Notes: a model not told the origin generated them from the letters alone. 32,000 nucleotides of DNA from Promethearchaeota archaeon (GCA_030606485.1 JAUWGH010000003.1:240001-272000); one strand, 5' to 3'; positions 7,335 through 27,148 are shown, counted from the first letter of the stretch. A program made the numbers and translations.

Positions 7335-7460
7335 AAAGGTTCTTATATTTAAATATTTTGATAAATTTATAAAAAACTTTCTTATTTCTTTAAAAAGGCG
7401 GAATTTGGATACAATTTTTAATGCAAACAACAAATTGAGATTATTAATTTAGATTAAAAT

Positions 7461-9500: not shown

Positions 9501-9609
9501 TATACATCTCTCATAAAATTAGATCTTGTTATTATCTATATTAAAAAAATTATCGTATTTAATTTCACGTATATTTTATATATTAAATAAAAAATAAGAT
9601 AAAAAGATT

Positions 9610-10299: not shown

Positions 10300-10309
10300 A
10301 TTCGCCTCT

Positions 10310-10864
10310 TTAGGTTCCCACCTTCTTTAAAGCTATTATAGGTCTGACCTTTAAAACTCTCCTTGTGCCTAAAAAGATACCAATTAATTGAACTAAAATG
10401 AATAAGAGAAATGTAACAAACACAGAACCGAGAGAGATTAAAGGTAATCCTGATGCAGCAAAGGTAGGATCATATGCTGAATAGAAATATCCTAAAAATG
10501 CTACTACGTGAAATAAAATTTCAATCACGATAATAAATCCACTTAATGTAGTAAATATAATTTCGCCTATAATGATCGCTTGACAATTTTTATTGGTCCA
10601 ACCAATGCATTTGAGTGTGGCTATTTCACGTCTTCTATAATTCGTGATTATCCAGGCATATAAAAGCGATAAGAATATTGAAATACCCATTGCAATAAAA
10701 AATGAGGTAAGTCCAATGTCTCCTAAGGTCGGAGTTAAATCTAATGAAAATGAAGACCAAAAAATTAGTGCCGTATACATTAAAGTAAAGACTGTAAACC
10801 TTCTTTTGCTTCTTAGGGTAAGGACAACTGCCTTTTTCCACAATCGTAAAGCCATAATAGTCAC
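10310..10864 (-). CDS. FtsX/MacB-like ABC permease, minimal 4-TM form
   Basis: RRREIATLKCIGW matches the FtsX-domain RxxEIxxLKxxG motif and the C-terminal RRVLKVRPIIALK resembles the family end motif. Lies 10 nt upstream of the ATPase. Start could be 10864 or 10855. Confidence 0.8.
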   Translation of the reverse strand: MTIMALRLWKKAVVLTLRSKRRFTVFTLMYTALIFWSSFSLDLTPTLGDIGLTSFFIAMGISIFLSLLYAWIITNYRRREIATLKCIGWTNKNCQAIIIGEIIFTTLSGFIIVIEILFHVVAFLGYFYSAYDPTFAASGLPLISLGSVFVTFLLFILVQLIGIFLGTRRVLKVRPIIALKKVGT

Positions 10865-11040
10865 TTAAGAATTTTTTATAAATTTTTTTAGTTAGTTCCA
10901 AAATATTTTTGGATATATTAAATTAAAGAATAATGTATTTTATATATTTAAGCAATGGATAATAAACGAATTTTAAAATAATTTTTAGCTATTAATAATC
11001 ATTAATCGAAAAATCAAAAATTCAAAAGGGTTGAGAAATA

Positions 11041-11427
11041 TTGTCTAGTAAGATTAGTACTATTATAAATGTCTTATTAAATGAAGAACCAAATGTAATA
11101 GGGGTAGCTTTAATTGGTAGTGATAATCAAATAAGTTTTCAAACGGAGAACTGGGATTTATCACAAGATTTATCGGGTATATTGAACTTAATTCAAGCCC
11201 AAAGTGGAGTTGGAAGAATTACATTACAGGGGGTTAATTATATGGTTGTTGAGAATACTCCTGAACGAAAAATCGCAACTAATATTAAAGGAAAGGGGCA
11301 TATTATAATTTGTCCTACAGGTGATAACAACGCTGCATTAATGTGTTATATCAGTCCACAAGCCGGTCCTCGTGATGCGTTATTTAACGTGCAAGAATAT
11401 GCAAAAAAATTAAAAAAGAAATTGTAA
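11041..11427 (+). CDS. Asgard profilin (actin-monomer-binding eukaryotic signature protein)
   Basis: 128 aa with a TTG start (in-frame TGA at 11032-34 excludes an upstream start). Motifs QTENWD, QGVNYMVVENTPERKIATNIKGKGH and YISPQAGPRDALFNVQEYA match my recollection of Lokiarchaeota profilins. Confidence 0.85.
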   Translation: MSSKISTIINVLLNEEPNVIGVALIGSDNQISFQTENWDLSQDLSGILNLIQAQSGVGRITLQGVNYMVVENTPERKIATNIKGKGHIIICPTGDNNAALMCYISPQAGPRDALFNVQEYAKKLKKKL

Positions 11428-11510
11428 AGAATAAAAATTCTCTATTTTTTTTTGAATTTTTGAATATTTAAATTCTTTAGATCTTAAGTTAGAGGTTTTT
11501 ATAATATTTC

Positions 11511-11885
11511 TTACACCTTCATTTTCTTAAGTTGATTCAATGCATTACCATATCGTTCACTTTTATTAGCCCATTTTTTAAGTTTGATACAAGGAAATTC
11601 TTGACATTCATAGCAATACTCTAGATTTTTATTATTAACACAACATTCTCGAATCCAGCAATCCAGTGTCCAGCATTTTGTAATATCTCCCCTACAACCA
11701 TTACAATGGAAATCTTCAGCCTTTACATCTTCCCATGCACCATCAAACTGCTTTACCAATTGATGAGCTATTTCTGGATTATTTGAGGCGTTATATATAT
11801 TACAATTGCCGCAGTCCAAGCCGCAGACTGCAATCTTCTGCTGTTTTTTCTCATTTATTTTCTGATTATTTTTCAAAAATCTCAT
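11511..11885 (-). CDS. DUF3795 domain Cys-rich protein
   Basis: Pattern AVCGLDCGNC...CNGCRG...CWTLDCWIRECC...YCYECQEFPC, characteristic of DUF3795. Confidence 0.8.
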   Translation of the reverse strand: MRFLKNNQKINEKKQQKIAVCGLDCGNCNIYNASNNPEIAHQLVKQFDGAWEDVKAEDFHCNGCRGDITKCWTLDCWIRECCVNNKNLEYCYECQEFPCIKLKKWANKSERYGNALNQLKKMKV

Positions 11886-11950
11886 GCTTATATGTAATTT
11901 AAAATATATCGAGAAAATCTATACTCATTTTTTATTAATTAGCGCTAATA

Positions 11951-13045
11951 TTAAATGATATGCCAATAATCTCTTAATAAATCCTTTAATTCATCTTTTA
12001 TTTTAGTAATTACTTTTGAGATATCTAAATCCTCGGGAAATTCTATTTTTTCTTGAGAAGGTAGATTAACCAGTTCACCTAGAAGTGCTTTAATTATAGA
12101 GTAAGAACATATTGGTAATGCACTTAAGCTATATCCTCCTTCGAGTATAAATGCGATTTTCCCATTACACACATTATTGGCGAGTGTTAATAATTTTTGA
12201 GTAAGTTTAATGTATGAATTCGCTGTAAGCAAACAGTTTCCGATGGGATCTGTATAGTGGCAATCAAATCCGCAGGCAACAATTATTATTTCGGGTTTAA
12301 ACTCTGAAAATACTGCCTTTAAAATATCAAAAAACTCTAAATAATACTTATCAGTAGTTTTGGGAGGTATTGGAAAATTAATATTATAGCCTAAACCTTC
12401 ATTTTCTCCAAGCTCATGAATAAAACCCAGTTCTCCTTGATCAAAATCATATTCATGAATTGAAAAATAAAGGACCTCAGGGTCTTCATAAAAAAATTTA
12501 GCGATTCCATCTCCATAATGATTATCAATATCAATGATAGCAAACTTTTTAGCATTTTTTTTTATTTTTCTTAAATATTGAATGCCTACTGCGATATTAT
12601 TAAAAATGCACAGACCTGAAGCTACATCTCTTAATGCATGATGACCCGGAGGTCTTATGAAAGCAAATGATTGATTAATATCTCCCGATACGACGGAATC
12701 AAAAGCAGTGATAGTTCCCTCAACTGCTTTTTTTGCCAATTGAAATGTCTCTTCAGTAATGAATATAGATTCACCAATACTTCCAGAGCCCATATTTGAA
12801 AAATATTTTATTGAATCAACATGGTATCTGGTATGAACTAATTCAAGAATTGTCTCAATCTTTTCAAAACTTCTTATTGGAATCTTTTTTATCCTATTAT
12901 CTTCAAAGAGATTTTCTTTTTCAAAATAGTCCATAATGCATTTAATTCTTAAAGGTGTTTCAAATGCTTCAAAATAAGGTCGGGGGAAAGGTGGTTCATT
13001 TAAAATTTCAAAGTCTTTATCTGAGATTATTCCTATGTTATTCAT
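11951..13045 (-). CDS. Zn-dependent histone deacetylase family protein (HDAC/AcuC/APAH-like)
   Basis: RPPGHH, GLCIFNN, DIDNHYGDG, SIH, CGFDCHYTDPIG and LEGGY; all catalytic and Zn ligands appear present. Confidence 0.92.
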   Translation of the reverse strand: MNNIGIISDKDFEILNEPPFPRPYFEAFETPLRIKCIMDYFEKENLFEDNRIKKIPIRSFEKIETILELVHTRYHVDSIKYFSNMGSGSIGESIFITEETFQLAKKAVEGTITAFDSVVSGDINQSFAFIRPPGHHALRDVASGLCIFNNIAVGIQYLRKIKKNAKKFAIIDIDNHYGDGIAKFFYEDPEVLYFSIHEYDFDQGELGFIHELGENEGLGYNINFPIPPKTTDKYYLEFFDILKAVFSEFKPEIIIVACGFDCHYTDPIGNCLLTANSYIKLTQKLLTLANNVCNGKIAFILEGGYSLSALPICSYSIIKALLGELVNLPSQEKIEFPEDLDISKVITKIKDELKDLLRDYWHII

Positions 13046-13130: not shown

Positions 13131-15386
13131 ATGGAACCGATAGAAATATTTTTCATGTTCTTTCTAAATGCATTGCCAATTATTTTTTTAGCAATTCCAA
13201 TACCTTTTATATATAAAAGATTAATTGGAAAATTATATTTAAGAGTTTTCTTAGGAATTGTTATATTCTTTCTAGTATATTGGGTTTTACCAATTACGTT
13301 TCAAACAAACATCGATCCTAAGGAGCTTCAATTACATCCCCAAGAACAAGAAAATATATTTATGGCACTTTTTTTCATATTTACCCATATGATATCTCTA
13401 ATTGGTTATTTTTTCCAATATCCTTTTGCAACTTTGACATTTATTTTTTTAGTAGGGCCCCTTTTATCGTTTCTCATATTATGGAGAAAATTGCGCAAAG
13501 AACCGGGAAATATGAGGGATAAACTTGCCGATCTAACTTTTGAATTTAAAAAAAGTCCTTCTGATATGATTAAAGAAGGACTAATAAAAAGTGATTGGTC
13601 GGAAGAAAAACAACTCATAAAATTATTAATTGTTCTTTTGCCGATATCTTTATACTTATTATCCGTTATAATCAAACTTTTAGGTTTAGAGAATATTGAT
13701 TTAACCACAGGTACAACAACTATGGGATGGTTTGTGGAAATTTTATTTGTATATATTGCCACACTATTACTTGGGATTCACTTGGTTTATAGTAGTAAAA
13801 TTTCCTTTAAAGGAGTATATATTGGAGAAAAATTGAGAGAAGATACATTTAGAAGTTTGTTTCAAGTAGGAACACCAATATCTCTTTTAAGTATTTTATT
13901 ATTTTTAGCGGATCCTAATACAAATCACGTTTTTATACTTTATTTCTTCGCATATTTTATGATGGGTGCTATAATATTTATTTTATTTCTTAAAATTTTT
14001 CAACCTATTGCCATTTTAATTTTTATAAAGTTAATTGATTTATGGAAAAGAACAAAAACGAAGAAAAAAAAGATAGATTGGACAAATTGGTATATTCCTT
14101 TAATTATTGGCGTAGGAGGCTGTTTAATTTTTATTATTATTTACCATTTTTTAATTAATCCATTACAGGTAGGGATAATTATAAGTCAAGAATATTTTGA
14201 TGAGTTGATATTAAAAGGTGATATTTCTTATGGAAATATTATATTTTTAGAAGATATGTTGAGATTGGACCTATGTAATATCACAAATACATTTATTTTA
14301 ATTTTTTCTGTTATCCTTTTTGCATATCTTTTCGCGAGAAGTATGCAATTTATAAAAAAGATAGCCATAACATCTTTTATCTTTCTAGGGATTGTCATTT
14401 TACTCTCAATAATGATTTTATTAGTAGGGCTCTACCCTCCAATCAATTTTGCTCCGGAAGAATATGAATATTGGATTACTGGTGCACCAGCTTATTTTTC
14501 ATTATTTGATAAAGATATTTACACAATAAGGACAGTTTTGTTTAAAGTCAACCTAGGTGAATTTCCATTATTAGTAATTATAGCGATTCCATTCACTTAT
14601 ACACGATATGTTTTTAATCTCTTAATCTGGGGATTAATTTTATATTATTTAAATAAAATTTTTATTATCAAAAATGTTCCAAAGGAAGGAGATATAATTG
14701 AACGGATATCCTTTTCGCGGATTTCTGAATTCCCAAAATATGAAGCATATGTTACAGATCTCTATCGATATTTAGTAGTAAAAACTCCTGAATCAGAAGT
14801 TAAGGCAGAAAAAATTGAAGAAAGAGAAGAAGTTAAAGAATTATTAGAAAAGATCAAGGATAATAAATTCTTGAAAGAAATTAGACCTATAGAGAAGGAA
14901 GAAATGCGTAGATTTTATTTTACTTTAAAATATCTATTTTATGATGGAAAAATCTCTTTTTGGATTCCAGAATTCACATATACTTCTGGAAAAGTCGAGC
15001 TTCAAGGACTTTATGTTATTTACAGTGATGGCAGAGACCTTTTCAGTTACAACTTTTCAGGTGTAGATTATGCAGACCCAGGATTGATTGCGGGTATGTT
15101 TACGGCTATTACGGCTTTTATTAAAGAGACAACAAAGAGTTCAGAATTACTGAAAACCATTGATCATGGCGATATCAAAATCTTGATAGAGTATGGAAAG
15201 TATATTTTTTCTGCTTTATTTATCAAAGGAAAACAGTCTTTAGAAAATAGGGGTATTTTAAAAGAGTTTGTTGAATGGTTTGAGGAAAAGCATAAACCTC
15301 ATCTTTTAGATTGGTCAGGAGCTCTACATCCTTTCAGAGATTCTAAAGATAAAGTAGAGGAAATATTTAAGGAAGAGGAGGAATAA
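13131..15386 (+). CDS. Large polytopic membrane protein with C-terminal longin-like domain
   Basis: About 500 aa of hydrophobic helices, then a soluble tail ending in LYVIYSDGRDLFSY...GLIAGMFTAITAFIKE...IDHGDIKILIEYGKYIFSALF...LKEFVEWFEEK, the beta-beta-alpha-beta-beta-beta-alpha-alpha longin-type pattern common in Asgard proteins. Confidence 0.7.
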   Translation: MEPIEIFFMFFLNALPIIFLAIPIPFIYKRLIGKLYLRVFLGIVIFFLVYWVLPITFQTNIDPKELQLHPQEQENIFMALFFIFTHMISLIGYFFQYPFATLTFIFLVGPLLSFLILWRKLRKEPGNMRDKLADLTFEFKKSPSDMIKEGLIKSDWSEEKQLIKLLIVLLPISLYLLSVIIKLLGLENIDLTTGTTTMGWFVEILFVYIATLLLGIHLVYSSKISFKGVYIGEKLREDTFRSLFQVGTPISLLSILLFLADPNTNHVFILYFFAYFMMGAIIFILFLKIFQPIAILIFIKLIDLWKRTKTKKKKIDWTNWYIPLIIGVGGCLIFIIIYHFLINPLQVGIIISQEYFDELILKGDISYGNIIFLEDMLRLDLCNITNTFILIFSVILFAYLFARSMQFIKKIAITSFIFLGIVILLSIMILLVGLYPPINFAPEEYEYWITGAPAYFSLFDKDIYTIRTVLFKVNLGEFPLLVIIAIPFTYTRYVFNLLIWGLILYYLNKIFIIKNVPKEGDIIERISFSRISEFPKYEAYVTDLYRYLVVKTPESEVKAEKIEEREEVKELLEKIKDNKFLKEIRPIEKEEMRRFYFTLKYLFYDGKISFWIPEFTYTSGKVELQGLYVIYSDGRDLFSYNFSGVDYADPGLIAGMFTAITAFIKETTKSSELLKTIDHGDIKILIEYGKYIFSALFIKGKQSLENRGILKEFVEWFEEKHKPHLLDWSGALHPFRDSKDKVEEIFKEEEE

Positions 15387-15458: not shown

Positions 15459-16166
15459 TTACATTAATAACTTAAATTCAAAAATAGCTTTTAATTGTTC
15501 AGCAATTTTCTCTAATAAATTCTTTTCTTCTTCAAGGAAGGGCTTTTCCTCGAGATAATGTACAGAAATACATAATTCCTTATCCTTTATTAAATTTTTA
15601 ACTGTTAATTTCCAAGGGGTTTTTTTATAGTTGTCTGTTAAATATTCTTTTTTATCAAAAACTATTTTTGAACATATCATATCCGGAAATTTCCAGGCAT
15701 TTTGAATTTGCTTTTGAGTTTCTATTAGAATTTCTTCAATTGATATGTTAGGATTTTTTATGAGTTCAATAATATTAAATAAACAATTAAGTTCCTTAAC
15801 TCGTTCTTTTAATTTATTTTCTGCCTTTAAGATTTGCTTGCTTAAAATGACAACCACAATACCAATAAATAAAATTAAGACAGCTCGAAAAATATTTTCT
15901 ATAAGATTATTTAAAAACATATCCAATCCACTTAAAATGGAAAAGAAAATGAGTAATCCAGAGAGAAAGATTGGTACAACCAAACCTTTGTTTCTCCACC
16001 AAAGACATGCAAAAATAATAGGGATATAAAAGAAATGGGAAAAAATAATGCTTATTTTTAGAATAAATTGAAAATAATATTGTAAAAAAAGTGAAGCAGA
16101 TAACAGAATAAATATGATAAGAAATCTTAATTTTTCTTTAGAAATATTAGTTTTTAATCCACCCAT
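15459..16166 (-). CDS. Membrane sensor module (about 4 TM plus GAF-like domain) with no output domain
   Basis: FSHFFYIPIIFACLWW resembles the N-terminal TM module of archaeal sensor kinases. LKERVKELNCLF...AWKFPDMICSKI...PFLEEEKNLLEKIAEQL resembles the GAF-like segment that usually precedes PAS/HisKA domains. The stop follows directly. Confidence 0.65.
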   Translation of the reverse strand: MGGLKTNISKEKLRFLIIFILLSASLFLQYYFQFILKISIIFSHFFYIPIIFACLWWRNKGLVVPIFLSGLLIFFSILSGLDMFLNNLIENIFRAVLILFIGIVVVILSKQILKAENKLKERVKELNCLFNIIELIKNPNISIEEILIETQKQIQNAWKFPDMICSKIVFDKKEYLTDNYKKTPWKLTVKNLIKDKELCISVHYLEEKPFLEEEKNLLEKIAEQLKAIFEFKLLM

Positions 16167-16212
16167 AAATCTTCCTCAATCAGTATAATTCTTATATTAA
16201 AAGGTTTTAATC

Positions 16213-17517
16213 TTAATGGGTTGCACAAGAGATACATGGGTCAAACGATCTTATAATCATTTGCGCTTGTTTTTTTATCTGATTAAAATCCCCAGTTCTT
16301 TCATATAATTTTTGGCTTTGTGTTGTTAGGATTTCATCAATAATTGGCAAATTAATTTCAGTTGCAATAAAAAGCTTCACTTTATCAATTAATCTCTTTT
16401 TATTTACATGATAATAGTGTATGAGAGTTCCTCGAGGTGCTTCAACCATGCCGAGTCCTTCATTATTTCTTAAAAAATTAATGGGACGTATATCATTTTT
16501 TTGTGTCAATTCAGTATCGTCTAGAATTGATAACCCTTCGTAAGAAACAAACATCATTTCTATTAGCCTGATAACGTTTGAGAATAAAATACTATTTTGC
16601 CATTCTTTATTAAAAAGTCCAATATAGGATTGCAGTTCATCTATTCCATAATCATTAATTATTTTATATCGTGCGAGTGGGCCAACAAGAATGTTTTGGT
16701 TGTTTTTTAAATAGAAATCAATTCCACGTATATCCTCCTGCTTATCAAAATATTGCGAATGTTTATATACGGGAAAATCTGCGATAATTTTATTATTTTG
16801 TGCTAATCGTAAGAGTCCATTATACCGGTCATATTTCTCATCATTATGCATTCCCATATAAGCAGGATTTGGTAAGGAATAAACATCAGGAGGATCAAAT
16901 TGAGAAAATATCTCTTGGAATCGCTCAATAATCCATTTTAAATTATTTATAGAATTTTGCAGATATTTCCGTGCAATATTTATTTCTTTTTTGGAAGGAG
17001 AAAAAAATACACCACCGATAATGGGCGTTATTAAATGAACAGACCTTCCACCAAATAAATTCCCAATTTCATTGCCAATTTTTATTAATTCATACATATT
17101 TGAAGTTAATTTGGGATCAAAATGGATTAATTCATTCAGTGAGAGTGGTTTTGGTTGTTTATCCAAAATTACAAAAAGGTCGGGAAATGCTTGAAAAAAG
17201 AAATGCATTGAATGTGATCTTATCAACTCACCAATCATTAATAGTCGTCTCAAAAGAACTGATTGATTTGATGGTTCGACTTCATACATACTCTCTATTG
17301 CTTTACAACTAGCTATTGTCTGTGATGCGTGACACAATCCACATATTCTTGATGCAATTCTAGGAGTATCGATTAGCCTTTTGTCAAGTAAAATATTTTC
17401 AAACCCTCGAAATATCTCAAGATCAAAATTCACACTTGAAATTTCATCTTTCTGAAGTAAAATTTTTATATTTCCATGTCCTTCCACCCGAGTGCATACA
17501 TCAACTACTTTCTTCAT
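16213..17517 (-). CDS. mvhA: [NiFe]-hydrogenase large subunit, group 3 (MvhA-like), atypical
   Basis: TRVEGHG, RGFE, L1 RICGLCHASQ, SHSMHFF..AFPD, GGRSVH, VGPLAR, VEAPRGTLIH and L2 FDPCISCATH followed directly by TAA. Confidence 0.9.
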   Translation of the reverse strand: MKKVVDVCTRVEGHGNIKILLQKDEISSVNFDLEIFRGFENILLDKRLIDTPRIASRICGLCHASQTIASCKAIESMYEVEPSNQSVLLRRLLMIGELIRSHSMHFFFQAFPDLFVILDKQPKPLSLNELIHFDPKLTSNMYELIKIGNEIGNLFGGRSVHLITPIIGGVFFSPSKKEINIARKYLQNSINNLKWIIERFQEIFSQFDPPDVYSLPNPAYMGMHNDEKYDRYNGLLRLAQNNKIIADFPVYKHSQYFDKQEDIRGIDFYLKNNQNILVGPLARYKIINDYGIDELQSYIGLFNKEWQNSILFSNVIRLIEMMFVSYEGLSILDDTELTQKNDIRPINFLRNNEGLGMVEAPRGTLIHYYHVNKKRLIDKVKLFIATEINLPIIDEILTTQSQKLYERTGDFNQIKKQAQMIIRSFDPCISCATH

Positions 17518-17523
17518 AATTTT

Positions 17524-18285
17524 TTACCTCTTGGTTTTTGGTTTTGAATAACGATAGAAAATTCCTTTATATTTCCTTAGACCTTTGGCAAGATTTACAG
17601 TGCTCAAAAAATTAATGGCATTAGAGGTAAAATCGTTTTTAATTGGTCCCATGCACCCATCACAAGGAAGGTTCAATTTAATGCACTTAGATTCACAACC
17701 ATCTCTAGTTATTGGTCCCAAGCATAAAATTCCTCTTTCTAAAAAGCAACGTTTATCTTTATTTTCGATATCTAAGTTATATTCTCTAGGCATTAGTTTA
17801 TTAATTCGTTTCATAAATTTGCTTTCAATATTATCAGTTCTAAATTCGCAATCTACACAAACATTTTTTTCAGGCAAAATAATCTCTTTATTTTCTAGCA
17901 GTCTAATAATACAATTGCCTAATAATTTAGAAGGTGGTGGACATCCAGGAATTATTCCATCTATTTCTATATAATTGGATATGGGTTCTGCTTCTTTTAC
18001 AGTGGAAAGTGCAAGCATTCCACCAAAAGCAGCACAAGTTCCTAAAGCAATTACTCTCTTGGATTTACTCCGAATATTTTTAAGAATATCGATTTGTTTT
18101 TCCTCTGAAACACATCCCTCAATTAAAGCGATATCATTTTCAGAGATATTATTTTCATCTCTCATAAATGAACAACGAACGAGATTTACCTTTTCAAGAA
18201 ATTGAGGAAAGATATCTAATGAAATCATTGTTGAGATACAACCACTACAAGAAGTCAATGATTCGATTAAGAAACTAGGTTTCAT
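17524..18285 (-). CDS. mvhG: [NiFe]-hydrogenase small subunit, group 3 (MvhG-like)
   Basis: LTSCSGC, IEGCV, LGTCAAFGG, IPGCPP, CVDC and CFLERGILCLGPITRDGCESKC...PCDGCMGP; no Tat signal. Start moved from 18312 to the ATG at 18285, which has GAGGAG just upstream and overlaps the previous stop by 11 nt. Confidence 0.88.
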   Translation of the reverse strand: MKPSFLIESLTSCSGCISTMISLDIFPQFLEKVNLVRCSFMRDENNISENDIALIEGCVSEEKQIDILKNIRSKSKRVIALGTCAAFGGMLALSTVKEAEPISNYIEIDGIIPGCPPPSKLLGNCIIRLLENKEIILPEKNVCVDCEFRTDNIESKFMKRINKLMPREYNLDIENKDKRCFLERGILCLGPITRDGCESKCIKLNLPCDGCMGPIKNDFTSNAINFLSTVNLAKGLRKYKGIFYRYSKPKTKR

Positions 18286-20806
18286 TTTTAATCTCCTCTG
18301 ATAATCTTTCATAAAAAGAATTTACAATCTCTGCAAATTTATTGCCCTCAACTGCACTTAATGATTTACGAATTATTCGATTTTCAGCAATAGGACCTAA
18401 AACTTCATTTAAAAGTTTAACTTTTTGTCTTACTTGATCCACACTATTTATATATCGGCAGGAATCTTTTCTGCAACCAATAATCATTACTCCATCAAAT
18501 CCTAATTTGAAAGATTTAAAAATTAAACTCGTATCTACCCGCCCTGTGCATGGAACTTTAATAATAAAGATGTTGGGATTATAGGAAAGTTTCTTTAAGC
18601 CAGCTTCATCGGCTGCACCATATCCGCAAGAACGACAGCAGAATGCGATTATTTTTGGTCGTAAATTGAATTTAGAAAATACCTCAATTGATTTCAGTAT
18701 CTTTTCAGTAGTATCAATGTTTAAGTCAAGTGCATTTGTGGGACAAACACTTACACACGTTCCGCATCCTTTACATTTGAATTTATCAATCGCAATTTTG
18801 TCTGCCTCAATTGTGATTGCATTGTAAGGACAAGATAAAATGCATAAACCACACAATCCGCAATTCTCTTCTTTGATTTCGATACCGCTAAATTCTGTAA
18901 TTAAATAATCATTTGATAACAATGAAATAATTTTAATAGCTACATCATTGGAAGATGAGATCACTGAATTATAATCTAATGGACCTTTAATTGAACCGAC
19001 ACCAAAAATACCTGATGCCAGCGTTTCCTCACTCATAAAACCATGATCGTCTAATGTAAAATCTAAAGTCTTTCGAAGTTCTTTTAAATCTTTATTTGGA
19101 ACAAAATTGACATTTAACACGATCATATCGGAGGGATACTGCTCTGAATCAGAAATAATTATTTTCTTATTTCCTTTCTCTATGATTTCAATATTTTCAT
19201 AATAATGAAATCTTTCATCAGATGGATCTAACATAAATCCAGTAGATTTCTTAATTTTATTTAAATCAAAAAATATGTTAATTTTACAATCAGGAAGTTG
19301 TGAATAAATAGATTCTAAATACTTTATGGCGAGAGTACCACAATATTCCGCTAAATAATCAAATGGGCCTAAACATTGAATTATTGAGATTGATTTCGGT
19401 GGTTTTCCATCAGATAATTTCAAAATTTTACCTTCCGTTGGACCATCCGCTGATAAGATACGTTCAAATTCCGGTGATATAATTACATCATTTTGTGGAT
19501 TATAGTTATAAGGTTTTAATTCAGAATAAAAATCCGCACCAATTGCAATTACTTTTGTTCCAACTCTAATCCTTATTTTTTCAAATTTCTGATCCAAATC
19601 AATCGCATTATTATTGCAAGCTCGCTCGCAAATTCTACATTGTCGGCAAGTTTCAATATCTTCTTGGTCAATCACTGGAGCATATGGATAAGATTGAACA
19701 TAAGGAATATAAATTAACTTCCTTGGTGTTAATCCAAATTCATATTGATTACTTTTTTCTATACTGCAAATTTCAATACATCTTTTACATCCAGTACATT
19801 TCTTTTCATCAACATATCGGGGTTTTTTAACCAAATCAATTGAAAAATTTCCTACTTCACCTGATACTTTTTCTATTTCAGTATTAGTTAAAATTTCGAT
19901 ATTTTTTTCTTTAACAACCTCACCTATCATTTCTGACATAAGACAAATTGAACAATCACCCATTCCATAAATTTTACTCCACCTGGCAATTTTACCTCCT
20001 AATGTTGGGGATTTTTCAATTAAATAAACCTTAATCCCAGCCCTTGCTAGACTTAATGCAAGTGTCATCCCTGCAATTCCGCCACCCAAAATAGCACAAC
20101 TTTTTTCAATCTTAACTGTTTTTACTTGAACATCTTTTTGTAATGCAACACGCTCAACTGCTGCTTCAACTAAAATTTGTGCTTTTTTTAACGCCAGAGT
20201 AGGTTCTTTTAGATGCACCCAGCAACATTGCTCTCTAATATTGGCAATTTCAATATTAACTTTATCAATAACTCCATCAAAAATTCTTTCAAATATATGC
20301 AAATGAGTTTTTGGAGAACACGCAGCAATAACAATCTTATTTAAATAATTATCTTTAGACCATTTAGTAATCTTTTCTAAATTTTTCTCTTGACAAAGAT
20401 TATCAAAAATCTTCACAGCAACTACATTGGGAATTCTTTTAATATAATTTTCAAGTGCATTAATACTTATAAGATTAGAAATTTCAGTATTGCATTTACA
20501 AATAATAACCCCCACTCGATTAATCTCACTACCAACCTTATCCAAATATTCAATATCCTCCCCTGCCAAAATTTTTTTATCAATATTCATTAAATTTATA
20601 ACTCGTTTTCCGTCCTCCGTGAGAAAATAGGATTTTTTATCTTTATTTATTAAAGTCCCAAGTTTTTTAAGGTGAAAGTTTAATTGCCCTGTAGTCTCTA
20701 AACCTAACCTATCCATCAAATCCGTGTAAGGAATATAACCTTCTTTATCAAGAAGTAATAAAACCCTCCTCCTAAATGGATGAGATAAAATTGAATATAT
20801 ATCCAT
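18275..20806 (-). CDS. hdrA: Fusion: ArsR-like winged-helix DNA-binding domain + HdrA-like flavoprotein + MvhD [2Fe-2S] domain
   Basis: aa 1-75: LSHPFRRRVLLLL...YTDLMDRLGLETTGQLNFHLKKL...YFLTEDG (wHTH). Then HdrA motifs RVGVIICKC, AACSPKTH, NIREQCCWVH, GGGIAG, DCSIC, inserted 2x[4Fe-4S], EFER..GPTEG and C-terminal 2x[4Fe-4S]. The last about 128 aa are MvhD (FCCRSCGY, VPCTGRVD, GCRKDSCRY). GGGAG SD-like site upstream. Confidence 0.88.
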   Translation of the reverse strand: MDIYSILSHPFRRRVLLLLDKEGYIPYTDLMDRLGLETTGQLNFHLKKLGTLINKDKKSYFLTEDGKRVINLMNIDKKILAGEDIEYLDKVGSEINRVGVIICKCNTEISNLISINALENYIKRIPNVVAVKIFDNLCQEKNLEKITKWSKDNYLNKIVIAACSPKTHLHIFERIFDGVIDKVNIEIANIREQCCWVHLKEPTLALKKAQILVEAAVERVALQKDVQVKTVKIEKSCAILGGGIAGMTLALSLARAGIKVYLIEKSPTLGGKIARWSKIYGMGDCSICLMSEMIGEVVKEKNIEILTNTEIEKVSGEVGNFSIDLVKKPRYVDEKKCTGCKRCIEICSIEKSNQYEFGLTPRKLIYIPYVQSYPYAPVIDQEDIETCRQCRICERACNNNAIDLDQKFEKIRIRVGTKVIAIGADFYSELKPYNYNPQNDVIISPEFERILSADGPTEGKILKLSDGKPPKSISIIQCLGPFDYLAEYCGTLAIKYLESIYSQLPDCKINIFFDLNKIKKSTGFMLDPSDERFHYYENIEIIEKGNKKIIISDSEQYPSDMIVLNVNFVPNKDLKELRKTLDFTLDDHGFMSEETLASGIFGVGSIKGPLDYNSVISSSNDVAIKIISLLSNDYLITEFSGIEIKEENCGLCGLCILSCPYNAITIEADKIAIDKFKCKGCGTCVSVCPTNALDLNIDTTEKILKSIEVFSKFNLRPKIIAFCCRSCGYGAADEAGLKKLSYNPNIFIIKVPCTGRVDTSLIFKSFKLGFDGVMIIGCRKDSCRYINSVDQVRQKVKLLNEVLGPIAENRIIRKSLSAVEGNKFAEIVNSFYERLSEEIKNET

Positions 20807-21162
20807 ATTTCTAATCTCCCTTTAATTATTTTTACCAATCATTATTTGGAAATTTATAATTCTTTGTTGAAAACCGAAAATAAATATTTTTAAAAAAAAT
20901 AATTATTATTTTCACTATGACAAATAAAGTTATCAAAAATAAAAATCTTACTGATCAAAAATCTTCAAAGTGTAATTATTCTCATTTTTAAACTGAAAAT
21001 AAAATTAGTTAAAAAAAAAAAAAGAAAATTAAAGTTATTAAAAAGACAATTTTTTTCTTTAAAACCACATAAAAATGAAAGAAAAAAAGATGTATTTCAA
21101 TTCTTTTTAGAAATAACTTGTCAAAATAAAGATAAGTTGATAAATCACTTATGATAATGAAA

Positions 21163-21187
21163 ATTGTCAATTTTATATTTTGACAAT
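21163..21187. promoter_or_regulatory. Inverted repeat ATTGTCAA-N9-TTGACAAT, candidate operator enclosing a TATA-like spacer
   Basis: Perfect 8-bp arms at 21163-21170 and 21180-21187 with spacer TTTTATATT, in the divergent intergenic region between the hydrogenase operon and the Mtd cluster. Confidence 0.5.
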
Positions 21188-21312
21188 ATTAGTTGTTAAA
21201 ATGGAGATAATTCTTTTTATCAAATTATTTTTATTATATTGTTAAGGTTAATTACTCGGTAAAAGAAAAAATAAAAAATAATTAAATAATTAAACAAAAG
21301 GTCCTTGATTAA

Positions 21313-21972
21313 ATGGAAGTTTTAGAAATCGAGCCGATAAAAAATAAAAAAATTTTTCTTTATATAATAGAGAAAGAAGATTATAAAATATCGCACGTAA
21401 AAGCAAAAATTTTCGAGGACTTTTTAAAAAATTATAAATTTGATTTTGCTACTATTGACTTATTGGGTAAAAATTTAAAACCATTAAATAATTCACCCAT
21501 AGCGAAATTTTTAGAAGATTTTTCAATCGAATTTATCGGTATTGACATTCCTGAATACGCAAAAGGTTATTTATTGGTAGAAATATCCGATAAAAAAGAA
21601 CAAATTAAGGAATTAGAATCAGAATATGAAAGTTTATCCAATGATCCCTCTGGAAAAGAATCATTTAAGGGGCAAAATCTAAAATCTTGGATTGATTTAT
21701 TAAAAGAGGAAGTTAATGATAAAGAACAATATATAAAATTAAAAGTTAAGCCTCAATGGATCGTTAAAAAAATATTGGACAGGGCAAGAACTTATAAGAA
21801 AAATTCCTTAATTATTTTACATTTAAGTCCAGAAGAATTAGTTCCTGAATTACAAAAATTGTTTCAGGAACTCAAAATAAATGTTATTATAAATGATTTT
21901 AGCACTGGAGTTTCAGATCGAACTTTTGATGCTAAGAATAAAGTAATAATTTCAAATCAAATCATAAAATAG
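21313..21972 (+). CDS. Hypothetical protein (domain copy A1; paralog of 24101..24733)
   Basis: Clear paralogy with A2 (FATIDL, IPEYAKGYL vs IPDYAKIYL, QNLKSWIDLLKEEV vs QNLNSWIHLLKSEV), and weaker similarity to the N-domains of the following genes. Confidence 0.8.
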   Translation: MEVLEIEPIKNKKIFLYIIEKEDYKISHVKAKIFEDFLKNYKFDFATIDLLGKNLKPLNNSPIAKFLEDFSIEFIGIDIPEYAKGYLLVEISDKKEQIKELESEYESLSNDPSGKESFKGQNLKSWIDLLKEEVNDKEQYIKLKVKPQWIVKKILDRARTYKKNSLIILHLSPEELVPELQKLFQELKINVIINDFSTGVSDRTFDAKNKVIISNQIIK

Positions 21973-21985
21973 GAGGTAAAAAAAA

Positions 21986-23668
21986 TTGCAAGTATTAGAA
22001 TTAAAACCTTTAAAAAATAAAAAATTAGAAATAATATTAATGGAAAGTGAGTTTCCAATTAGTTGGTGGTTGGAACCAACAAAAGAACAGCTGGAAGAAT
22101 CTTTAAATTTCAGTTTTATGTCAAAGGATTATCTCAAGCTTATTGAAGACATGTTGCGGAAATATCAACCTAATTTTGTAGCTGAAGAACGAGGGTTGCG
22201 TGAAAGTGATAAACTTCATTATGATGATGCTTTTATTGATTTATTTAGAGATTTTAAAATACTATATAAAATGGTAGATATTAATGAAAATGCTTTGGGG
22301 TATCTCGCTTCAACAATAGATAAAAATGCAGATCTTCTAAATGGAATAAAAGCAGAAATTAAAAAAATCAAAAAAAAGGGAGGTTTTCATCCTAATGATC
22401 ACTATTTCCAGCAATTAATTGTTTGGGAGGACTATTTACAGAGTGAATACAAAAATCAAGAGGAAGAAATAAGGTATAAGATCCGAGAAGCTTGGATGAT
22501 GATGGGGGTTCTTGACATAGCAAAAGAACAGAAAGAGAAAAACTTAAAATGTCTATTTATTTGTGATAAAAGGCATTTTGATGGTATTACAAGCCTTGCA
22601 GATGATCTGGGAATAGAAGTTCAAAAATTTGAAGTTAAGAAAAGTATTTTAAATATTGGGGATTTAGCGAAGCCAAATACGATAAAAGAGTTTATAAAGG
22701 TATCACTTATGGAAGTCGCCCCCATTAAAATAAAGAAAACAAGTTCCTTAGAGAAAATTGTGTATTTTCTTGATACAGACGAGCATGCCTCTCCCTTTGA
22801 TATTAATATGGCCTATGATGCAGGATTTGATGTAGTTATTCCTATTAACAATGTAAAAGCTGAACAAGTGCCACAACTCGTGCAAGATGCGATATTCTCG
22901 CGAAAGCCAAAAGCTCCGACCAGTTTTTTCATTGGTGGAGCGAATGTAAGGGAAGGCGAAAAAATTGCAAAAGAAGTTGTAAAGTCGTTGGTACCACCCT
23001 TCGAAGTCCCTGTGGTCATAGACCCGCGAGGGTCTCATACTACGGCTTCGGCAGTTGTTGCAAAAACTTTGGAAGCAGCAATGAAAAATGGGATAAATAA
23101 TATTTCTGGAAAAAAAGCGGTCATATTAGGAACTGGTCCTGTCGGGCGAATTGCAGCAATAATTGCGGCAAAACAAAATTGTGAAACAGTTTTAGTTGAG
23201 ACATGGGATAAGGGAAGTGAAAAAGCTGTAAAGCAGCTTGCAAAAGAATTAACTAAAGGGGCAGGAGAAGGTGCTTCTGAAATACTTGGAGAATTCGCAA
23301 TAACGGATGAGAAAAAATTTGAAATAATAAAAGATGCTGATATAATCTGGTCTTTAGCAGCTGCAGGAGTTCAAATCTTATCAGAAGAATTGATGAGTAA
23401 ATTACCAAAAAATAAAATCGTAATAGACATTAATTTAGTTCCGCCATACGGAATTGAAGGAATAAAACCAAAACACGATAATAAAGAAATATATCCAGGA
23501 ATTTTTGGAATTGGAGCATTAGGAATAGGTCATTTAAAATCTAATACGGAAAGTTCTATTCTTAAAGAAGCTACCAAAACCAAAGGAAAGAAAATATTCG
23601 ATTATAACATTGCTTTTGAAATTGCAAAAGAATTATTATTTGGTAAAGAGATTACAATATCTCGTTAA
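21986..23668 (+). CDS. Unknown N-domain fused to NAD(P)-dependent methylene-H4MPT dehydrogenase (MtdA/MtdB family), copy B1
   Basis: TTG start with GGAGGT SD. From about nt 22754: DTDEHASPFDINMAYDAG, LVQDAIFSR, FIGG, PPF, DPRGSHTTASA (Mtd N-domain), then Rossmann GTGPVG and DINLVPPYGIEG. Confidence 0.85.
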   Translation: MQVLELKPLKNKKLEIILMESEFPISWWLEPTKEQLEESLNFSFMSKDYLKLIEDMLRKYQPNFVAEERGLRESDKLHYDDAFIDLFRDFKILYKMVDINENALGYLASTIDKNADLLNGIKAEIKKIKKKGGFHPNDHYFQQLIVWEDYLQSEYKNQEEEIRYKIREAWMMMGVLDIAKEQKEKNLKCLFICDKRHFDGITSLADDLGIEVQKFEVKKSILNIGDLAKPNTIKEFIKVSLMEVAPIKIKKTSSLEKIVYFLDTDEHASPFDINMAYDAGFDVVIPINNVKAEQVPQLVQDAIFSRKPKAPTSFFIGGANVREGEKIAKEVVKSLVPPFEVPVVIDPRGSHTTASAVVAKTLEAAMKNGINNISGKKAVILGTGPVGRIAAIIAAKQNCETVLVETWDKGSEKAVKQLAKELTKGAGEGASEILGEFAITDEKKFEIIKDADIIWSLAAAGVQILSEELMSKLPKNKIVIDINLVPPYGIEGIKPKHDNKEIYPGIFGIGALGIGHLKSNTESSILKEATKTKGKKIFDYNIAFEIAKELLFGKEITISR

Positions 23669-23680
23669 ATTCAAAACTCA

Positions 23681-23710
23681 CTTCTTTTTTTTTATTTTTT
23701 TTTATTTTAT
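23681..23710 (+). terminator. T-rich tract downstream of copy B1
   Basis: CTTCTTTTTTTTTATTTTTTTTATTTTAT begins 13 nt after the stop codon. Confidence 0.5.
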
Positions 23711-24100
23711 GTTTAATTAATATAGAGCATATTTTAATTAATGATAAAAAAAGAATTGTATAGTTGATTATTTTAATTATCAATTTTATCAAACTTCTTT
23801 TGTTATATTTTTTTCATAGTAAGTTCTAAAAAAGAAAACTTTTTAATTTTTGACAATAAGTTTTGTTATTTTGATTAGTGCAGTTGTCTATTTTTTCAAA
23901 ATTTTTTTATCAAAATTTTTTCATAACTAATTCTAAAATAGAAATCTTTTAATTGATGATAAAAAAAATGGTCAAAATGATAAATTAATTAGTCAAATTT
24001 CTTAAAATCTTTCTTATCAAATACATTAAATGATTGGATTTAAATTAATTAAATAGAAAAAAAAAATTTCAGAATATAATAAAATTTGGAATGGGTAAAA

Positions 24101-24733
24101 ATGGAAGTATTAGATTTTAAAAAATTGGAAAATAATAAGAAGGTTTCTCTATATCTAATAGAAAAGGATAAAAAAGAATTATCTGACGCAGAACATGAAA
24201 ATTTATTGGCTCTCTTAAGAAAACAAAAATTCAATTTTGCTACGATTGATTTAAGCGATGATGATTTAAAAAAGATTTACCTGACTCCTTTAGCACAATT
24301 TTTTGATAATTTTGGGATACCATATTATTATGTTAATATCCCTGACTACGCTAAAATTTATTTATTAAATGAAATCTCAGAAAAAAAAGAACAAATTGAG
24401 GAATTACAAGGAGAATATGAGAAACTCTGTTCAGATCCTGCCGAGAAAGAGTCATTAAAGGCTCAAAATCTGAACTCATGGATACACCTCTTAAAAAGTG
24501 AAGTAAAAGACAAAGAAAATCATTTAGATTTAAAGCTAACACCTTTATGGATCACAAAAAAGGTATTAGATATAATTAAGATGATTAATGACGATGAGAT
24601 TAGTATTATTCATTTTACCCGTAAAGAATTGTTTTCTGAATTGAAAAAGTTATTTGAATCTCAAAATATCAAGGTTATTAATCTTGAGACAAGCAAAATT
24701 ATGAAAAAAAAATCAATTTTAATTTTAACTTAA
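24101..24733 (+). CDS. Hypothetical protein (domain copy A2)
   Basis: Paralog of 21313..21972. The ATG at 24101 (MEVLDF, cf. MEVLEI) is preferred over the TTG at 24086 in the ORF track. Confidence 0.8.
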   Translation: MEVLDFKKLENNKKVSLYLIEKDKKELSDAEHENLLALLRKQKFNFATIDLSDDDLKKIYLTPLAQFFDNFGIPYYYVNIPDYAKIYLLNEISEKKEQIEELQGEYEKLCSDPAEKESLKAQNLNSWIHLLKSEVKDKENHLDLKLTPLWITKKVLDIIKMINDDEISIIHFTRKELFSELKKLFESQNIKVINLETSKIMKKKSILILT

Positions 24734-24751
24734 ATAGGAGGTAAGTAAAAA

Positions 24752-25450
24752 ATGCAAGTATTAGAATTAGAAAGATTAAAAAATAAAACTCTTAAATTGT
24801 TATTAGTAGAGAGTGAATTTCCAATAGATTGGTCATTGGAAGCATCTTCAGAGGAAGAAGCTATTGCTGCAAAATTATTTATTATGTCTAAGAAATATTT
24901 GCAGTTTATTGAAGATATAGTAAAAAATCACAAGCCAGATTTTATAGTGGAAGAAAAAGGAATGCGCTCAAGTGATGATTTACAATATGATGATGCTTTA
25001 GTAGATTTATTCAGAGAATATAACATTCGATATAAAATGGTTGATATTTCCGAGAATGCTTTAGGTTATCTTGCTTCGACAATTGACAGAAATGTAGGTC
25101 TTTTAAAAGACTTTAGAGTAGAAATTGAAAATTTAAAAGAGAAGGGTGGTTTTCATCCTAATGATTTTAAACTTGAGCAATTAGTTGCCTGGAGGGATTA
25201 TTTACAGGGCGAATATTCTAATCAAGAAGATGAGATAAGATATGAAGTCCGTGAATCTTGGATGATGATGGGGATTCTTGATTTAGCAAGGAAGATTGAG
25301 AAAAAGCATTTAAAAGCAATATTTATCTGTGATAAAGAACATTTTGATGGAATAAAATCTCTAGCAGATGATTTAGGAATAAATATTGAAGTAATAAATG
25401 TAAATAAAATTTTAAAAAAAATAGAACAGCATTCGACACAAATTAATTAA
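24752..25450 (+). CDS. Stand-alone copy of the unknown N-domain (N2)
   Basis: GGAGGT SD. Aligns end-to-end with the first about 230 aa of B1 and B2 (ESEFPIDW, PDFIVEE, ENALGYL, GGFHPND, RESWMMMG, FICDKEHFDGI) and stops before the Mtd part. Confidence 0.82.
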   Translation: MQVLELERLKNKTLKLLLVESEFPIDWSLEASSEEEAIAAKLFIMSKKYLQFIEDIVKNHKPDFIVEEKGMRSSDDLQYDDALVDLFREYNIRYKMVDISENALGYLASTIDRNVGLLKDFRVEIENLKEKGGFHPNDFKLEQLVAWRDYLQGEYSNQEDEIRYEVRESWMMMGILDLARKIEKKHLKAIFICDKEHFDGIKSLADDLGINIEVINVNKILKKIEQHSTQIN

Positions 25451-25474
25451 AAAATAAGAGGTAATTTTTATAAA

Positions 25475-27148
25475 ATGCAATCTTTAGAATTAAAACCTTT
25501 AAAAAATAAGACTCTTAAGTTAGTATTAGTTGAGAGTGAATTTCCAATAGATTGGTCGTTGGAAGAGCCGACAGGGGAAGAAGCCATTGCTGCAAATATA
25601 TTTTTTGTTTCTAAGGAATATATGGAATTTACTGAAAATTTGGTGAAGAAATACAATCCTGATTTTGCAGTAGAGGATAAAGGGATGAGGTCAAATGATA
25701 GGCTGCTTTATGAGGATGAATTTGTAGATTTATTCAGAAAAAATGAGATCCCCTACAAAATGATAGGCATCCCTGAGAATGCTCTAAATTATATCTCCTC
25801 GGGATTGAATGGTAGTAAAGAACTTATAGAGAAATTTACTTCGGAGATTAGGGAATTAAAAGAAAAAGGCGGAGTTCATCCAAATGATCCACATTATCAA
25901 CAATTAATGATGTGGAGAGAACATTTACGGGATGAGTATAATAAGCAGGAAGATGAGATAAGATATAAAATCCGCGAATCTTGGATGATGATGGGAATTC
26001 TTGAATTAGGAAAAAAAATGGAGAAAAAACACTTGAAGGCATTATTTATTTGTGATAAAAGGCATTTTGATGGCATTTCGACTTTAGCAGATGATCTTGG
26101 AATTGACATTGAACAAATAAATATCAAAAAAGTTGCTAAAGATTTTCATGATGATATTTCTTCGGTAAAAGAATTAGTAAATACATCTGTTCTCGAAATA
26201 ATCCCGATAAAGATAAAGAAAAAAGTGAAGGCGGAAAGTATTTTGTATTTTTTTGATACTGATGAATATGCATCACCTTTTGATATTAATATGGCCTATG
26301 ATGCAGGGTTTAATGTTGTTATTCCTTTTTGCAACATTACGGCTGATAGAGTCGCTAGATTGGTCCAAGATGCTATGTTTTCACGAAAACCAAATGCTCC
26401 AACCGTTTATTTTGTTGGTGGATCAGATGTTGAAGAAGGTGAGAAAGTTGCAGAAGAGGTACAAAATGCACTTGTTCCTCCTTTTGAGGCCCCTGTAATT
26501 ATAGATCCTCGTGGAGCTCATACTACGGCTTCAGCTGTTGTTGCTAAAACCATAGAAATTGCAAGAAAACACGGAATAACAGATTTTACAGGAAAGAAAA
26601 TAGTTATTTTAGGGGGTACGGGACCAGTAGGACAAATTGGAGCGATACTTGCAGCTAAATTTCACGCTACACCCGTAATAATCTCCCGTCGGGAAAAGGC
26701 TGTAAAAGAACTTGCAAAGAAATTAATGGAAAAAGCAGGAGAAGGCGCTTCTGAAATAATTGGAATAGCGGCAACCACCGATGAAGAAAGATTTGAAATA
26801 GTAAAAGATGCCGATATAATTTGGTCAGTTGCAAAAGCCGGAATTCAAATGATATCAAAAGAATTAATGAAAAAACTCCCGCCAAACAAGATTGTTCTTG
26901 ATATTAATTTAGTTCCACCTTACGGAATTGAAGGACTAAAACCAAATTCTAACGACGATGAGATTTATCCAGGGATTTATGGAATCGGTGCTTTAGATAT
27001 AGGACGTCTTAAATATAAAATTGAAAGCCAGATTTTTAAGGATGCAACCAATACCAAGGGAAAGAAGGTGTTCGACTATAACTATGCTTTTGAAACAGCA
27101 AAAAAGATACTATTCGGAACTGAAATTACAGTTACACACACAAAATAA
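25475..27148 (+). CDS. Unknown N-domain fused to MtdA/MtdB-family methylene-H4MPT dehydrogenase, copy B2
   Basis: Same architecture as B1: DTDEYASPFDINMAYDAG, LVQDAMFSR, DPRGAHTTASA, GGTGPVG, ISRR and DINLVPPYGIEG. GAGGT SD upstream. Confidence 0.85.
   Translation: MQSLELKPLKNKTLKLVLVESEFPIDWSLEEPTGEEAIAANIFFVSKEYMEFTENLVKKYNPDFAVEDKGMRSNDRLLYEDEFVDLFRKNEIPYKMIGIPENALNYISSGLNGSKELIEKFTSEIRELKEKGGVHPNDPHYQQLMMWREHLRDEYNKQEDEIRYKIRESWMMMGILELGKKMEKKHLKALFICDKRHFDGISTLADDLGIDIEQINIKKVAKDFHDDISSVKELVNTSVLEIIPIKIKKKVKAESILYFFDTDEYASPFDINMAYDAGFNVVIPFCNITADRVARLVQDAMFSRKPNAPTVYFVGGSDVEEGEKVAEEVQNALVPPFEAPVIIDPRGAHTTASAVVAKTIEIARKHGITDFTGKKIVILGGTGPVGQIGAILAAKFHATPVIISRREKAVKELAKKLMEKAGEGASEIIGIAATTDEERFEIVKDADIIWSVAKAGIQMISKELMKKLPPNKIVLDINLVPPYGIEGLKPNSNDDEIYPGIYGIGALDIGRLKYKIESQIFKDATNTKGKKVFDYNYAFETAKKILFGTEITVTHTK

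Follow-up and report, generated by a model that had tools for sequence, protein, structure and literature searches.

The subject of this analysis is a hydrogenase operon in a 32,000-nt stretch of DNA (contig C8:240001-272000, hereafter the window, with positions counted from its first letter) from the 3.75-Mb genome of a Promethearchaeota (Asgard) archaeon with about 30% G+C. The operon encodes the MvhG and MvhA subunits of an [NiFe]-hydrogenase together with a protein in which a winged helix-turn-helix (wHTH) domain is fused to the flavoprotein HdrA and to MvhD, and which is read here, on balance, as part of an enzyme that also regulates transcription. In an earlier note the same operon had been put forward as a candidate H2- or redox-sensing regulatory hydrogenase built from Hdr-Mvh parts.

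Among the described proteins, HdrA2 of Methanosarcina is the best family match of the fusion and also carries a C-terminally fused MvhD; it is said to work with HdrB2C2, without a wHTH and without an adjacent hydrogenase. Unlike HdrA2, the Asgard protein bears a wHTH, and its HdrA2-like body (residues 97-837) reaches 598.6 bits against the NCBIfam cut-off of 1100 (NF040770). The bifurcating MvhAGD-HdrABC complex of methanogens, described together with Elp-Hdr and Fdh-Hdr (PDB 5ODC, 8RVU and 7BKB; PMC13580544, PMC12350162), has in common with the Asgard system the MvhA/MvhG module, the MvhD [2Fe-2S] connector and an HdrA with flavin adenine dinucleotide (FAD), a Cys pair, an N-domain cluster and two pairs of clusters in ferredoxin domains. 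Unlike in that complex, HdrA is here preceded by a wHTH and fused to MvhD, the four-Cys HA4 motif is lost, HdrBC are not encoded in the operon, and the operon is linked to genes of the U220 family and of Mtd rather than to methanogenesis genes. The large subunit also differs, since the MvhAGD-HdrABC norm is a His in the L1 motif and a C-terminal extension cut off during maturation, whereas the Asgard subunit has a Gln and no extension, and the scores are far below the NCBIfam cut-offs.

PutA is reportedly a flavoenzyme with a DNA-binding domain in which the redox state of the flavin controls DNA binding, and SurR of Thermococcales is said to be a redox-switched wHTH regulator of hydrogenase genes. 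RbkR, an archaeal wHTH protein with a riboflavin kinase (PMC5397151), likewise joins an enzyme to a DNA-binding domain within a single polypeptide, and its operator lies on its own promoter. Unlike RbkR and PutA, the enzyme part of the Asgard protein is a subunit of a multi-cluster hydrogenase complex, and its DNA binding is predicted from sequence. Like SurR, HdrR of M. barkeri (PMC11218639) is an archaeal HTH regulator of hydrogenase or hdr operons; both stand alone, unlike the Asgard fusion. The group 2b hydrogenases HoxBC/HupUV (PMC5665086) share the L1 Gln and the missing C-terminal maturation peptide. Unlike the Asgard system, they are bacterial, belong to another hydrogenase group, contain neither a flavoprotein nor a fused DNA-binding domain, and regulate the genes of a catalytic hydrogenase through a separate histidine kinase and response regulator.

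The wHTH-HdrA-MvhD operon and its distribution

The operon (15459-20806, minus strand) consists of four consecutive genes arranged head to tail, encoding the wHTH-HdrA-MvhD fusion (P0001, 843 aa, 18275..20806), an MvhG-type small subunit (P0002, 17524..18312), an MvhA-type [NiFe] large subunit (P0003, 434 aa, 16213..17517) and a small membrane protein (P0004, 235 aa, 15459..16166). The small subunit has 262 aa from its first ATG; its probable start is the MKPSF start used by its orthologs, at 18285, which gives an 11-nt overlap with hdrA, and the gaps further down the operon are 6 nt and then 46 nt. The open reading frames, gene order, overlap and gaps are exactly as the earlier note had described them. 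P0001 is assigned by Pfam, NCBIfam and PDB matches to HdrA and MvhD, with DUF7347 (PF24038) at residues 2-71 (E 1.5e-10) and an FlpD/MvhD domain at residues 719-836 (PF02662, E 1.8e-34) that matches chain 5odc_D. The ArsR-like wHTH domain (residues 1-82) corresponds to 20561..20806 and the fused MvhD [2Fe-2S] domain (residues 713-843) to 18278..18670, both on the minus strand. P0002 is VhuG-like with an Oxidored_q6 domain and contains 12 Cys, sufficient for three clusters.

The neighbourhood scan bore out that no hdrB or hdrC stands beside the operon: a CCG-domain (HdrB-type) gene adjoining it was not found, the nearest being a LutA-like gene at 763-1500. The wider genome speaks against the sensory reading of the earlier note, as hdrBC and many HdrD-like genes are encoded elsewhere, with about 25 CCG-domain genes outside the operon's surroundings. 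Neither hdrB nor hdrC is encoded in the operon here or in 73 of 80 orthologous loci, and in the other seven an HdrD-like gene lies downstream.

These 80 loci, counted at species level in a genome scan, include Jordarchaeia and closed chromosomes, and mvhG follows hdrA in 76 of them. In a protein search more than 120 orthologous clusters were found, with 64-94% identity and about 849 aa throughout, all with DUF7347, from bins labelled Loki-, Hel-, Thor-, Hod-, Hermod- and Odin-. The fusion was present in 120 of 400 sampled Asgard genomes, counting matches that begin at residue 1-2 or are cut off by the end of a contig. Among the roughly ten HdrA genes of this genome, the paralog nearest to P0001 reaches no more than 37% identity, and by sequence the wHTH-HdrA-MvhD proteins form a distinct, tightly conserved orthologous group. 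The architecture is thus widespread and not the one-off that the earlier note had named as a refutation. An assembly chimera or a mis-called gene fusion has next to no probability: nothing was found in its favour, and it is refuted by unbroken frames of 830-870 aa, which over 100 assemblies made independently of one another show in several Asgard classes, closed chromosomes included. No description of the fusion was found in the literature on DUF7347 and on HdrA with a helix-turn-helix.

Two further observations concern the orthologs. In four loci (L041, L053, L068 and L088, all :6001) the wHTH-hdrA frame opens with ATA, not ATG, behind a good GAGG-type ribosome-binding site, which implies a non-canonical start codon conserved in several lineages. 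A complete Asgard wHTH-hdrA operon was also found on L069 (DATKTW010000111.1), in a bin labelled 'Candidatus Nanopelagicaceae bacterium', probably through a binning error.

The winged-helix domain and a conserved operator

The N-terminal domain of P0001 was modelled with AlphaFold2 as a canonical winged helix, having helices at residues 10-22, 27-34, 39-52 and 64-81, with a strand at 24-26 and a wing at 53-62, and a disordered 12-residue linker (84-95) separates it from HdrA. The recognition helix (residues 39-52, TTGQLNFHLKKL) is invariant in the clade, as are Lys55 and Lys58 of the wing, and the domain profile matches the ArsR-family repressor structure 1y0u (E 1.2e-4). With a mean pairwise identity of 75.5%, the wHTH is the most conserved of the domains (recognition helix 86%; flavin/inserted-ferredoxin core 67%). 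The dimer model of the domain scored 0.61 against 0.01 for the best control, a mark reached by 20 of 30 proteins solved as same-chain pairs but, of 23 single-chain structures, by 1; three runs agreed in at least 95% of contacts, and the predicted local distance difference test score (pLDDT) of the partner was 85. The predicted interface is formed by residues 2-13 and 68-85 and leaves the recognition helix free, and the modelled pairing is that of a classical ArsR/SmtB dimer, though the pass of the model may be owed to likeness to solved ArsR dimers. HdrA itself is dimeric in solved complexes according to the literature.

ArsR/SmtB-like factors have a winged helix, dimerise through N- and C-terminal helices and bind a palindromic operator, usually on their own promoter; the modelled P0001 domain has the former features, and a conserved palindrome lies on its own promoter. 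By conservation and model, the DNA-binding domain that the earlier note had placed on HdrA is a real, strongly conserved ArsR-like wHTH and looks like a working DNA-binding domain.

As a separate observation, the DUF7347 wHTH is also fused to an ATP-cone and NrdD (anaerobic ribonucleotide reductase) in this genome (L010:4381-6510, G000:C5:185381-187510), with a different recognition helix, which suggests that enzyme-fused wHTH modules recur in it.

The candidate targets of the wHTH are the operon itself and the genes that diverge from it. Five U220 copies lie on the plus strand of the window (21313-27148), of which three stand alone (21313-21972, 24086-24733 and 24752-25450) and two are fused to Mtd, a methylene-tetrahydromethanopterin (methylene-H4MPT) dehydrogenase with an Mpt_N domain (21986-23668 and 25475-27148). 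From neighbourhood and operators, all five are probable co-regulated partners. U220 is divergent from hdrA in 40 loci, and in nine loci of families f19 and f31 a U220::Mtd gene comes right after mvhA as part of one operon.

In a k-mer survey, TTGTCAA/TTGACAA was found in 21 of 23 non-redundant hdrA-upstream regions (1.6 expected), and the flanking positions show a 20-bp inverted repeat, TTGAYAA-N6-TTRTCAA. Allowing at most one mismatch, this repeat occurs 116 times with a spacer of 6 in the 80 loci (984 kb) and only 3-5 times with spacers of 4, 5, 7 or 8. The operator lies 200-330 nt before the hdrA ATG in loci with a divergent U220 neighbour, and about 60 and 230 nt before an frhB-like gene where such a gene precedes hdrA, so that its position follows the first gene of the operon and tracks the operon promoter. 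Additional sites lie on other U220/Mtd promoters among the 80 loci, and the core GAYAA-N6-TTRTC is kept before fusions that are only 39-48% identical. The window contains four matches (20917, 21151, 21180 and 23764; 0.14 expected), namely an inverted repeat with one mismatch 111-130 nt upstream of the hdrA ATG (20917..20936), two repeats near the divergent U220 start (21151-21170 and 21180-21199, together 21151..21199) and one repeat (23764-23783) that forms, with a cluster of TTRTCAA, the region 23764..24013 upstream of the second U220/Mtd set.

The whole genome has 23 near-matches, including these four, and clusters of at least five TTRTCAA half-sites occur at only two places in it, between hdrA and U220 and in the spacer ahead of the second U220 set. 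The genome-wide motif scan gave no operator at the other hydrogenase locus of the genome, and a site at C1:60715 was dismissed as chance, as it lies within the coding sequence of an frhB-like gene (encoding HDKGICQ). In three genomes that lack the fusion, operator matches are scattered and single, forming no clusters, and U220 is likewise missing from three fusion-less genomes. No informative covariation of recognition helix and operator was found: Gln41 is replaced by Leu, Lys or Ile in distant lineages with the operator core unchanged.

From the spacing, conservation, promoter placement and clustering of the operator, a dedicated and locally acting regulator is very likely present at the locus. 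No other conserved DNA-binding gene was found in the neighbourhood across the 80 loci, where the HdrA-borne wHTH is the sole one, and it is this wHTH, rather than another factor, that would bind the operator. Since the promoter of the operon itself carries this conserved palindrome, the wHTH protein is likely to bind DNA and to act as a regulator.

Redox centres and the role of the complex

Nearly all redox sites of the complex are kept. The FAD motifs of HdrA (GGGIAG and a G-rich one near the C-terminus), the pair Cys285/Cys288, the ligands of the N-domain cluster, the cluster pairs of both ferredoxin domains, the inserted and the C-terminal one, and Cys723, 724, 727, 753, 778 and 783 of MvhD are invariant in the clade. 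By alignment, Cys285/Cys288 correspond to Cys202/Cys205 of M. marburgensis, which have been proposed to pass electrons from MvhD to FAD (PMC13580544). The HdrA ligands kept amount to six [4Fe-4S] motifs less one, and only the four-Cys motif of the thioredoxin-reductase-like domain is lost (CVGSRD..YCSRVCC in M. marburgensis HdrA). In its place (residues 470-500, 19307..19399, minus strand) stand two non-conserved Cys; the clade consensus has no conserved Cys in this segment, which is the least conserved one (51% identity). As HA3 is placed on a mobile arm and HA4 relays the high-potential electron to HdrBC (PMC13580544, PMC12350162), the lost cluster is by elimination HA4, and its loss is in keeping with an operon that has no hdrBC. 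The bifurcation site, which the earlier note called eroded, is not; a single cluster is lost, and the FAD motifs, the Cys pair and the other clusters are invariant.

The large subunit P0003 has the L1 motif RICGLCHASQ (17320-17349, minus strand), which reads RICGICQVAH in solved MvhA (5odc_F), and the L2 motif DPCISCATH, with the stop codon directly after it (16213-16215, minus strand), whereas 5odc_F runs 25 residues further. The Ni-binding Cys59/62 and Cys428/431 are present, and RVEGH and PRG are invariant. The best PDB match is MvhA 5odc_F (175 bits), and the VhuA family is matched at 170 bits against a cut-off of 800. All best matches belong to group 3 (Mvh/Vhu, NAD-linked and sulfhydrogenase), and matches to group 1, to which the group 2 large subunits stand close, cover only the N-terminal 110-180 residues or so, indicating that P0003 is by sequence a group 3 subunit closest to Mvh and no relative of group 2b. 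The L1 Gln is found in 120 of 121 orthologs, and all complete orthologs are tail-less. The 'sensor-type' large subunit of the earlier note therefore stands for its clade-fixed Gln and missing tail and fails for its affiliation.

More distant fusions separate these traits. In families f19 and f31 the wHTH fusions keep the four-Cys HA4 motif, and the MvhA has RICG(I/T)C..(S/A)H and a 7-13-residue tail; in Jordarchaeia HA4 is lost, with the L1 His and a 7-residue tail kept; in family f4 and one Helarchaeota genome, Gln occurs with a 6- or 11-residue tail. A nested order is likely, in which the wHTH fusion was followed by loss of HA4, then by Gln and then by loss of the tail. In a tree built from the Asgard large subunits alone, the Vhu-type outgroup is joined, on long branches, by the MvhA proteins of f19 and f31 that bear His, so that orthology of the hydrogenase module may not extend to all wHTH fusions. 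Co-occurrence of the fusion with a Gln-bearing, tail-less MvhA, which the earlier note had proposed to check, thus holds within the clade and breaks down in f19, f31 and Jordarchaeia. Its four independent deviations do not form one package either, as distant fusions with the same operator core keep HA4, His and tail.

The reading favoured here, to which somewhat better than even weight is given, is a catalytic Mvh-HdrA complex that would also regulate its own genes, that is, a trigger enzyme with roles in catalysis and in regulation. In this proposal an Asgard-specific cytosolic Mvh-type [NiFe]-hydrogenase (MvhA, MvhG), wired through the fused MvhD to the HdrA-type flavoprotein, would exchange electrons among H2, ferredoxin and the flavin of HdrA. 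It is likely to have a second, high-potential partner that is not HdrBC and is probably connected with the co-regulated genes for NAD(P)-type methylene-H4MPT dehydrogenase, and we infer NAD(P)/Mtd to be this partner. The complex would thereby supply or remove reducing equivalents (ferredoxin and a second carrier) for the H4MPT-linked C1 branch. Its dimeric wHTH would bind TTGAYAA-N6-TTRTCAA on its own and the U220/Mtd promoters, the flavoprotein doubling as repressor or activator of the same gene set, and this binding would respond to the redox state, as it reportedly does in PutA. The complex is presumed to be catalytically active from the invariance of the Ni-binding Cys, the small-subunit clusters, the MvhD Cys, the FAD motifs and the ferredoxin pairs.

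A switch driven by H2 itself, in which electrons from H2 would pass via MvhA, MvhG and MvhD to the flavin and clusters of HdrA and switch the wHTH, so that the complex sets the expression of U220/Mtd and of its own genes, is a tentative proposal to which we give well under even weight. If true, no earlier case would be known of H2 sensing in archaea or of a hydrogenase doubling as a transcription factor, with or without substrate turnover.

Several points weigh against a trigger enzyme. Elsewhere, an L1 Gln and a missing tail are typical of sensor hydrogenases of low activity; the loss of HA4 and the absence of HdrBC leave the complex without an evident high-potential acceptor; and HA4 itself is named by elimination and from published descriptions, without coordinates. 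An unlinked factor could bind the operator, and as the genomes without the fusion also lack U220 and the hydrogenase, the phylogenetic profile fits both readings of the binder. Two single-contig genomes of family f3 (4.4 Mb and 6.0 Mb) lack the fusion, the Q-type MvhA and U220. Published hydrogenase expression figures for Lokiarchaeum/Prometheoarchaeum (PMC11216029) are inapplicable, since genomes of family f3 are without the fusion.

Were the complex purely catalytic, the wHTH would be a structural, dimerisation or docking module that does not bind DNA, and the palindrome would belong to an unlinked factor. Contacts between proteins are a frequent use of winged-helix folds, the prediction of the dimer interface is a confident one, and the same Pfam domain is fused to ATP-cone and NrdD in this genome; yet the recognition helix is the most conserved stretch and is free in the predicted dimer, the wing carries its two invariant Lys, and the palindrome, whose N6 spacing is fixed, suits a wHTH dimer and is found essentially only at loci that encode the fusion protein. 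With no other conserved DNA-binding gene in the neighbourhood, such an enzyme is considered improbable. Slightly less probable again is a dedicated one-component H2 or redox sensor, in which the hydrogenase would only set the redox state of HdrA and so switch the wHTH on or off the DNA at U220/Mtd and its own genes. The wHTH and operator evidence fits it equally well, the loss of HA4 removes the usual high-potential exit, L1 Gln and missing extension are as in bacterial regulatory hydrogenases (PMC5665086), a second, canonical Vhu-type hydrogenase with hdrCB is available in the genome for catalysis, and in 7 of the 80 loci the gene after mvhA encodes a membrane histidine kinase. The cognate PAS histidine kinase of group 2b (HoxJ/HupT) has, however, no counterpart in P0004, which is no kinase, and the large subunit is of group 3 and not 2b. 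Both ferredoxin-domain cluster pairs, needless in a sensor, are invariant, the other hydrogenase locus is without operators, and the Gln of sensor hydrogenases 'seems not to be involved in H2 sensing' (PMC5665086). Other lineages combine the wHTH, the operator core and the Mtd linkage with a normal MvhA (His and tail) and an HA4-bearing HdrA, and the 'sensor' traits arose stepwise. Since regulation and these traits are separable in evolution, a pure H2 sensor is possible and less likely than a trigger enzyme.

Under either role, the operon represents a widespread, uncharacterised clade of Asgard hydrogenases without an HdrBC branch, genetically tied to methylene-H4MPT dehydrogenase and seemingly absent from cultured Lokiarchaeales. 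Hydrogen exchange is central to the presumed lifestyle and syntrophy of Asgard archaea, the closest prokaryotic relatives of eukaryotes, and the regulation of their H2 and C1 metabolism is, to our knowledge, almost unexplored. With its defined 20-bp operator, the DNA-binding domain carried by the enzyme offers a testable model of this regulation, and redox-dependent binding would amount to a new principle of H2 sensing. The distribution of traits also corrects the idea that L1 Gln and tail loss alone mark a sensor.

Neighbouring and related genes

The fourth gene of the operon, P0004, has no Pfam or NCBIfam family and no kinase domain. It recurs only in a locus of the same species (L016) and is missing already beside an HdrA that is 94% identical, and on this distribution it is a lineage-specific addition outside the conserved system. 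The co-encoded sensor module of the earlier note is thus absent from nearly all orthologous loci. In its description as a 'membrane/GAF-like' protein, the membrane part is clear and the GAF-like C-terminal domain is a weak lead (feature score 0.88-0.89). The transmembrane part (residues 25-116) matches 351-aa kinases with transmembrane and HATPase_c domains, which are those found after mvhA in 7 of the 80 loci, and the C-terminal half differs from them. Paralogs of the membrane module lie at G000:C8:45032-45439 and G000:C1:364929-365282 (about 50% identity over the first 120-150 residues), and in histidine kinases of other Asgard genomes the module likewise comes first.

Immediately downstream of mvhA, the gene found most often is D343 (340-346 aa, 23 loci, e.g., L028:6414-7436), for which no family or feature match was found outside Asgard. 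A D343 homolog of this genome (G000:C1:66948-67907) follows a different HdrA-MvhD cluster on contig C1.

U220 has a confidently predicted fold (pLDDT 83.5) and contains no cysteines; no solved structure in the PDB matched at E <= 0.001, and a lead to TraB/GumN (0.84) was too weak and was not used. The predicted fold is that of the N-terminal domain of 560-580-aa Mpt_N proteins from Asgard and Bathyarchaeota, which are NAD(P)-type methylene-H4MPT dehydrogenases. An FrhB/FdhB-like gene precedes hdrA in 19-28 loci, and such proteins feed HdrA via MvhD-like subunits in methanogens (PMC12350162).

The second [NiFe]-hydrogenase of the genome is of Vhu type and lies on contig C5 (L009, G000:C5:244000-262000, genes 5523-12260), where a sulfur-transport gene and three DsrE/DsrF/DsrH-like genes are followed by an extended small subunit (435 aa), a VhuA-like large subunit (435 aa), hdrC and hdrB; neither hdrA nor mvhD was found beside it. 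Its large subunit has the L1 His and ends before L2, as in split VhuA/VhuU, and a separate VhuU, possibly containing selenocysteine, may lie within a 300-nt gap at this locus.

Elsewhere in the window, the LutA-like (CCG) gene, its sole CCG-domain gene, forms a pair with a LutB-like gene (LUD and 4Fe-4S domains; 763-2780) that is unrelated to the operon, and two long open reading frames without a Pfam match are located at 4927-7152 (741 aa) and 13131-15386 (751 aa).

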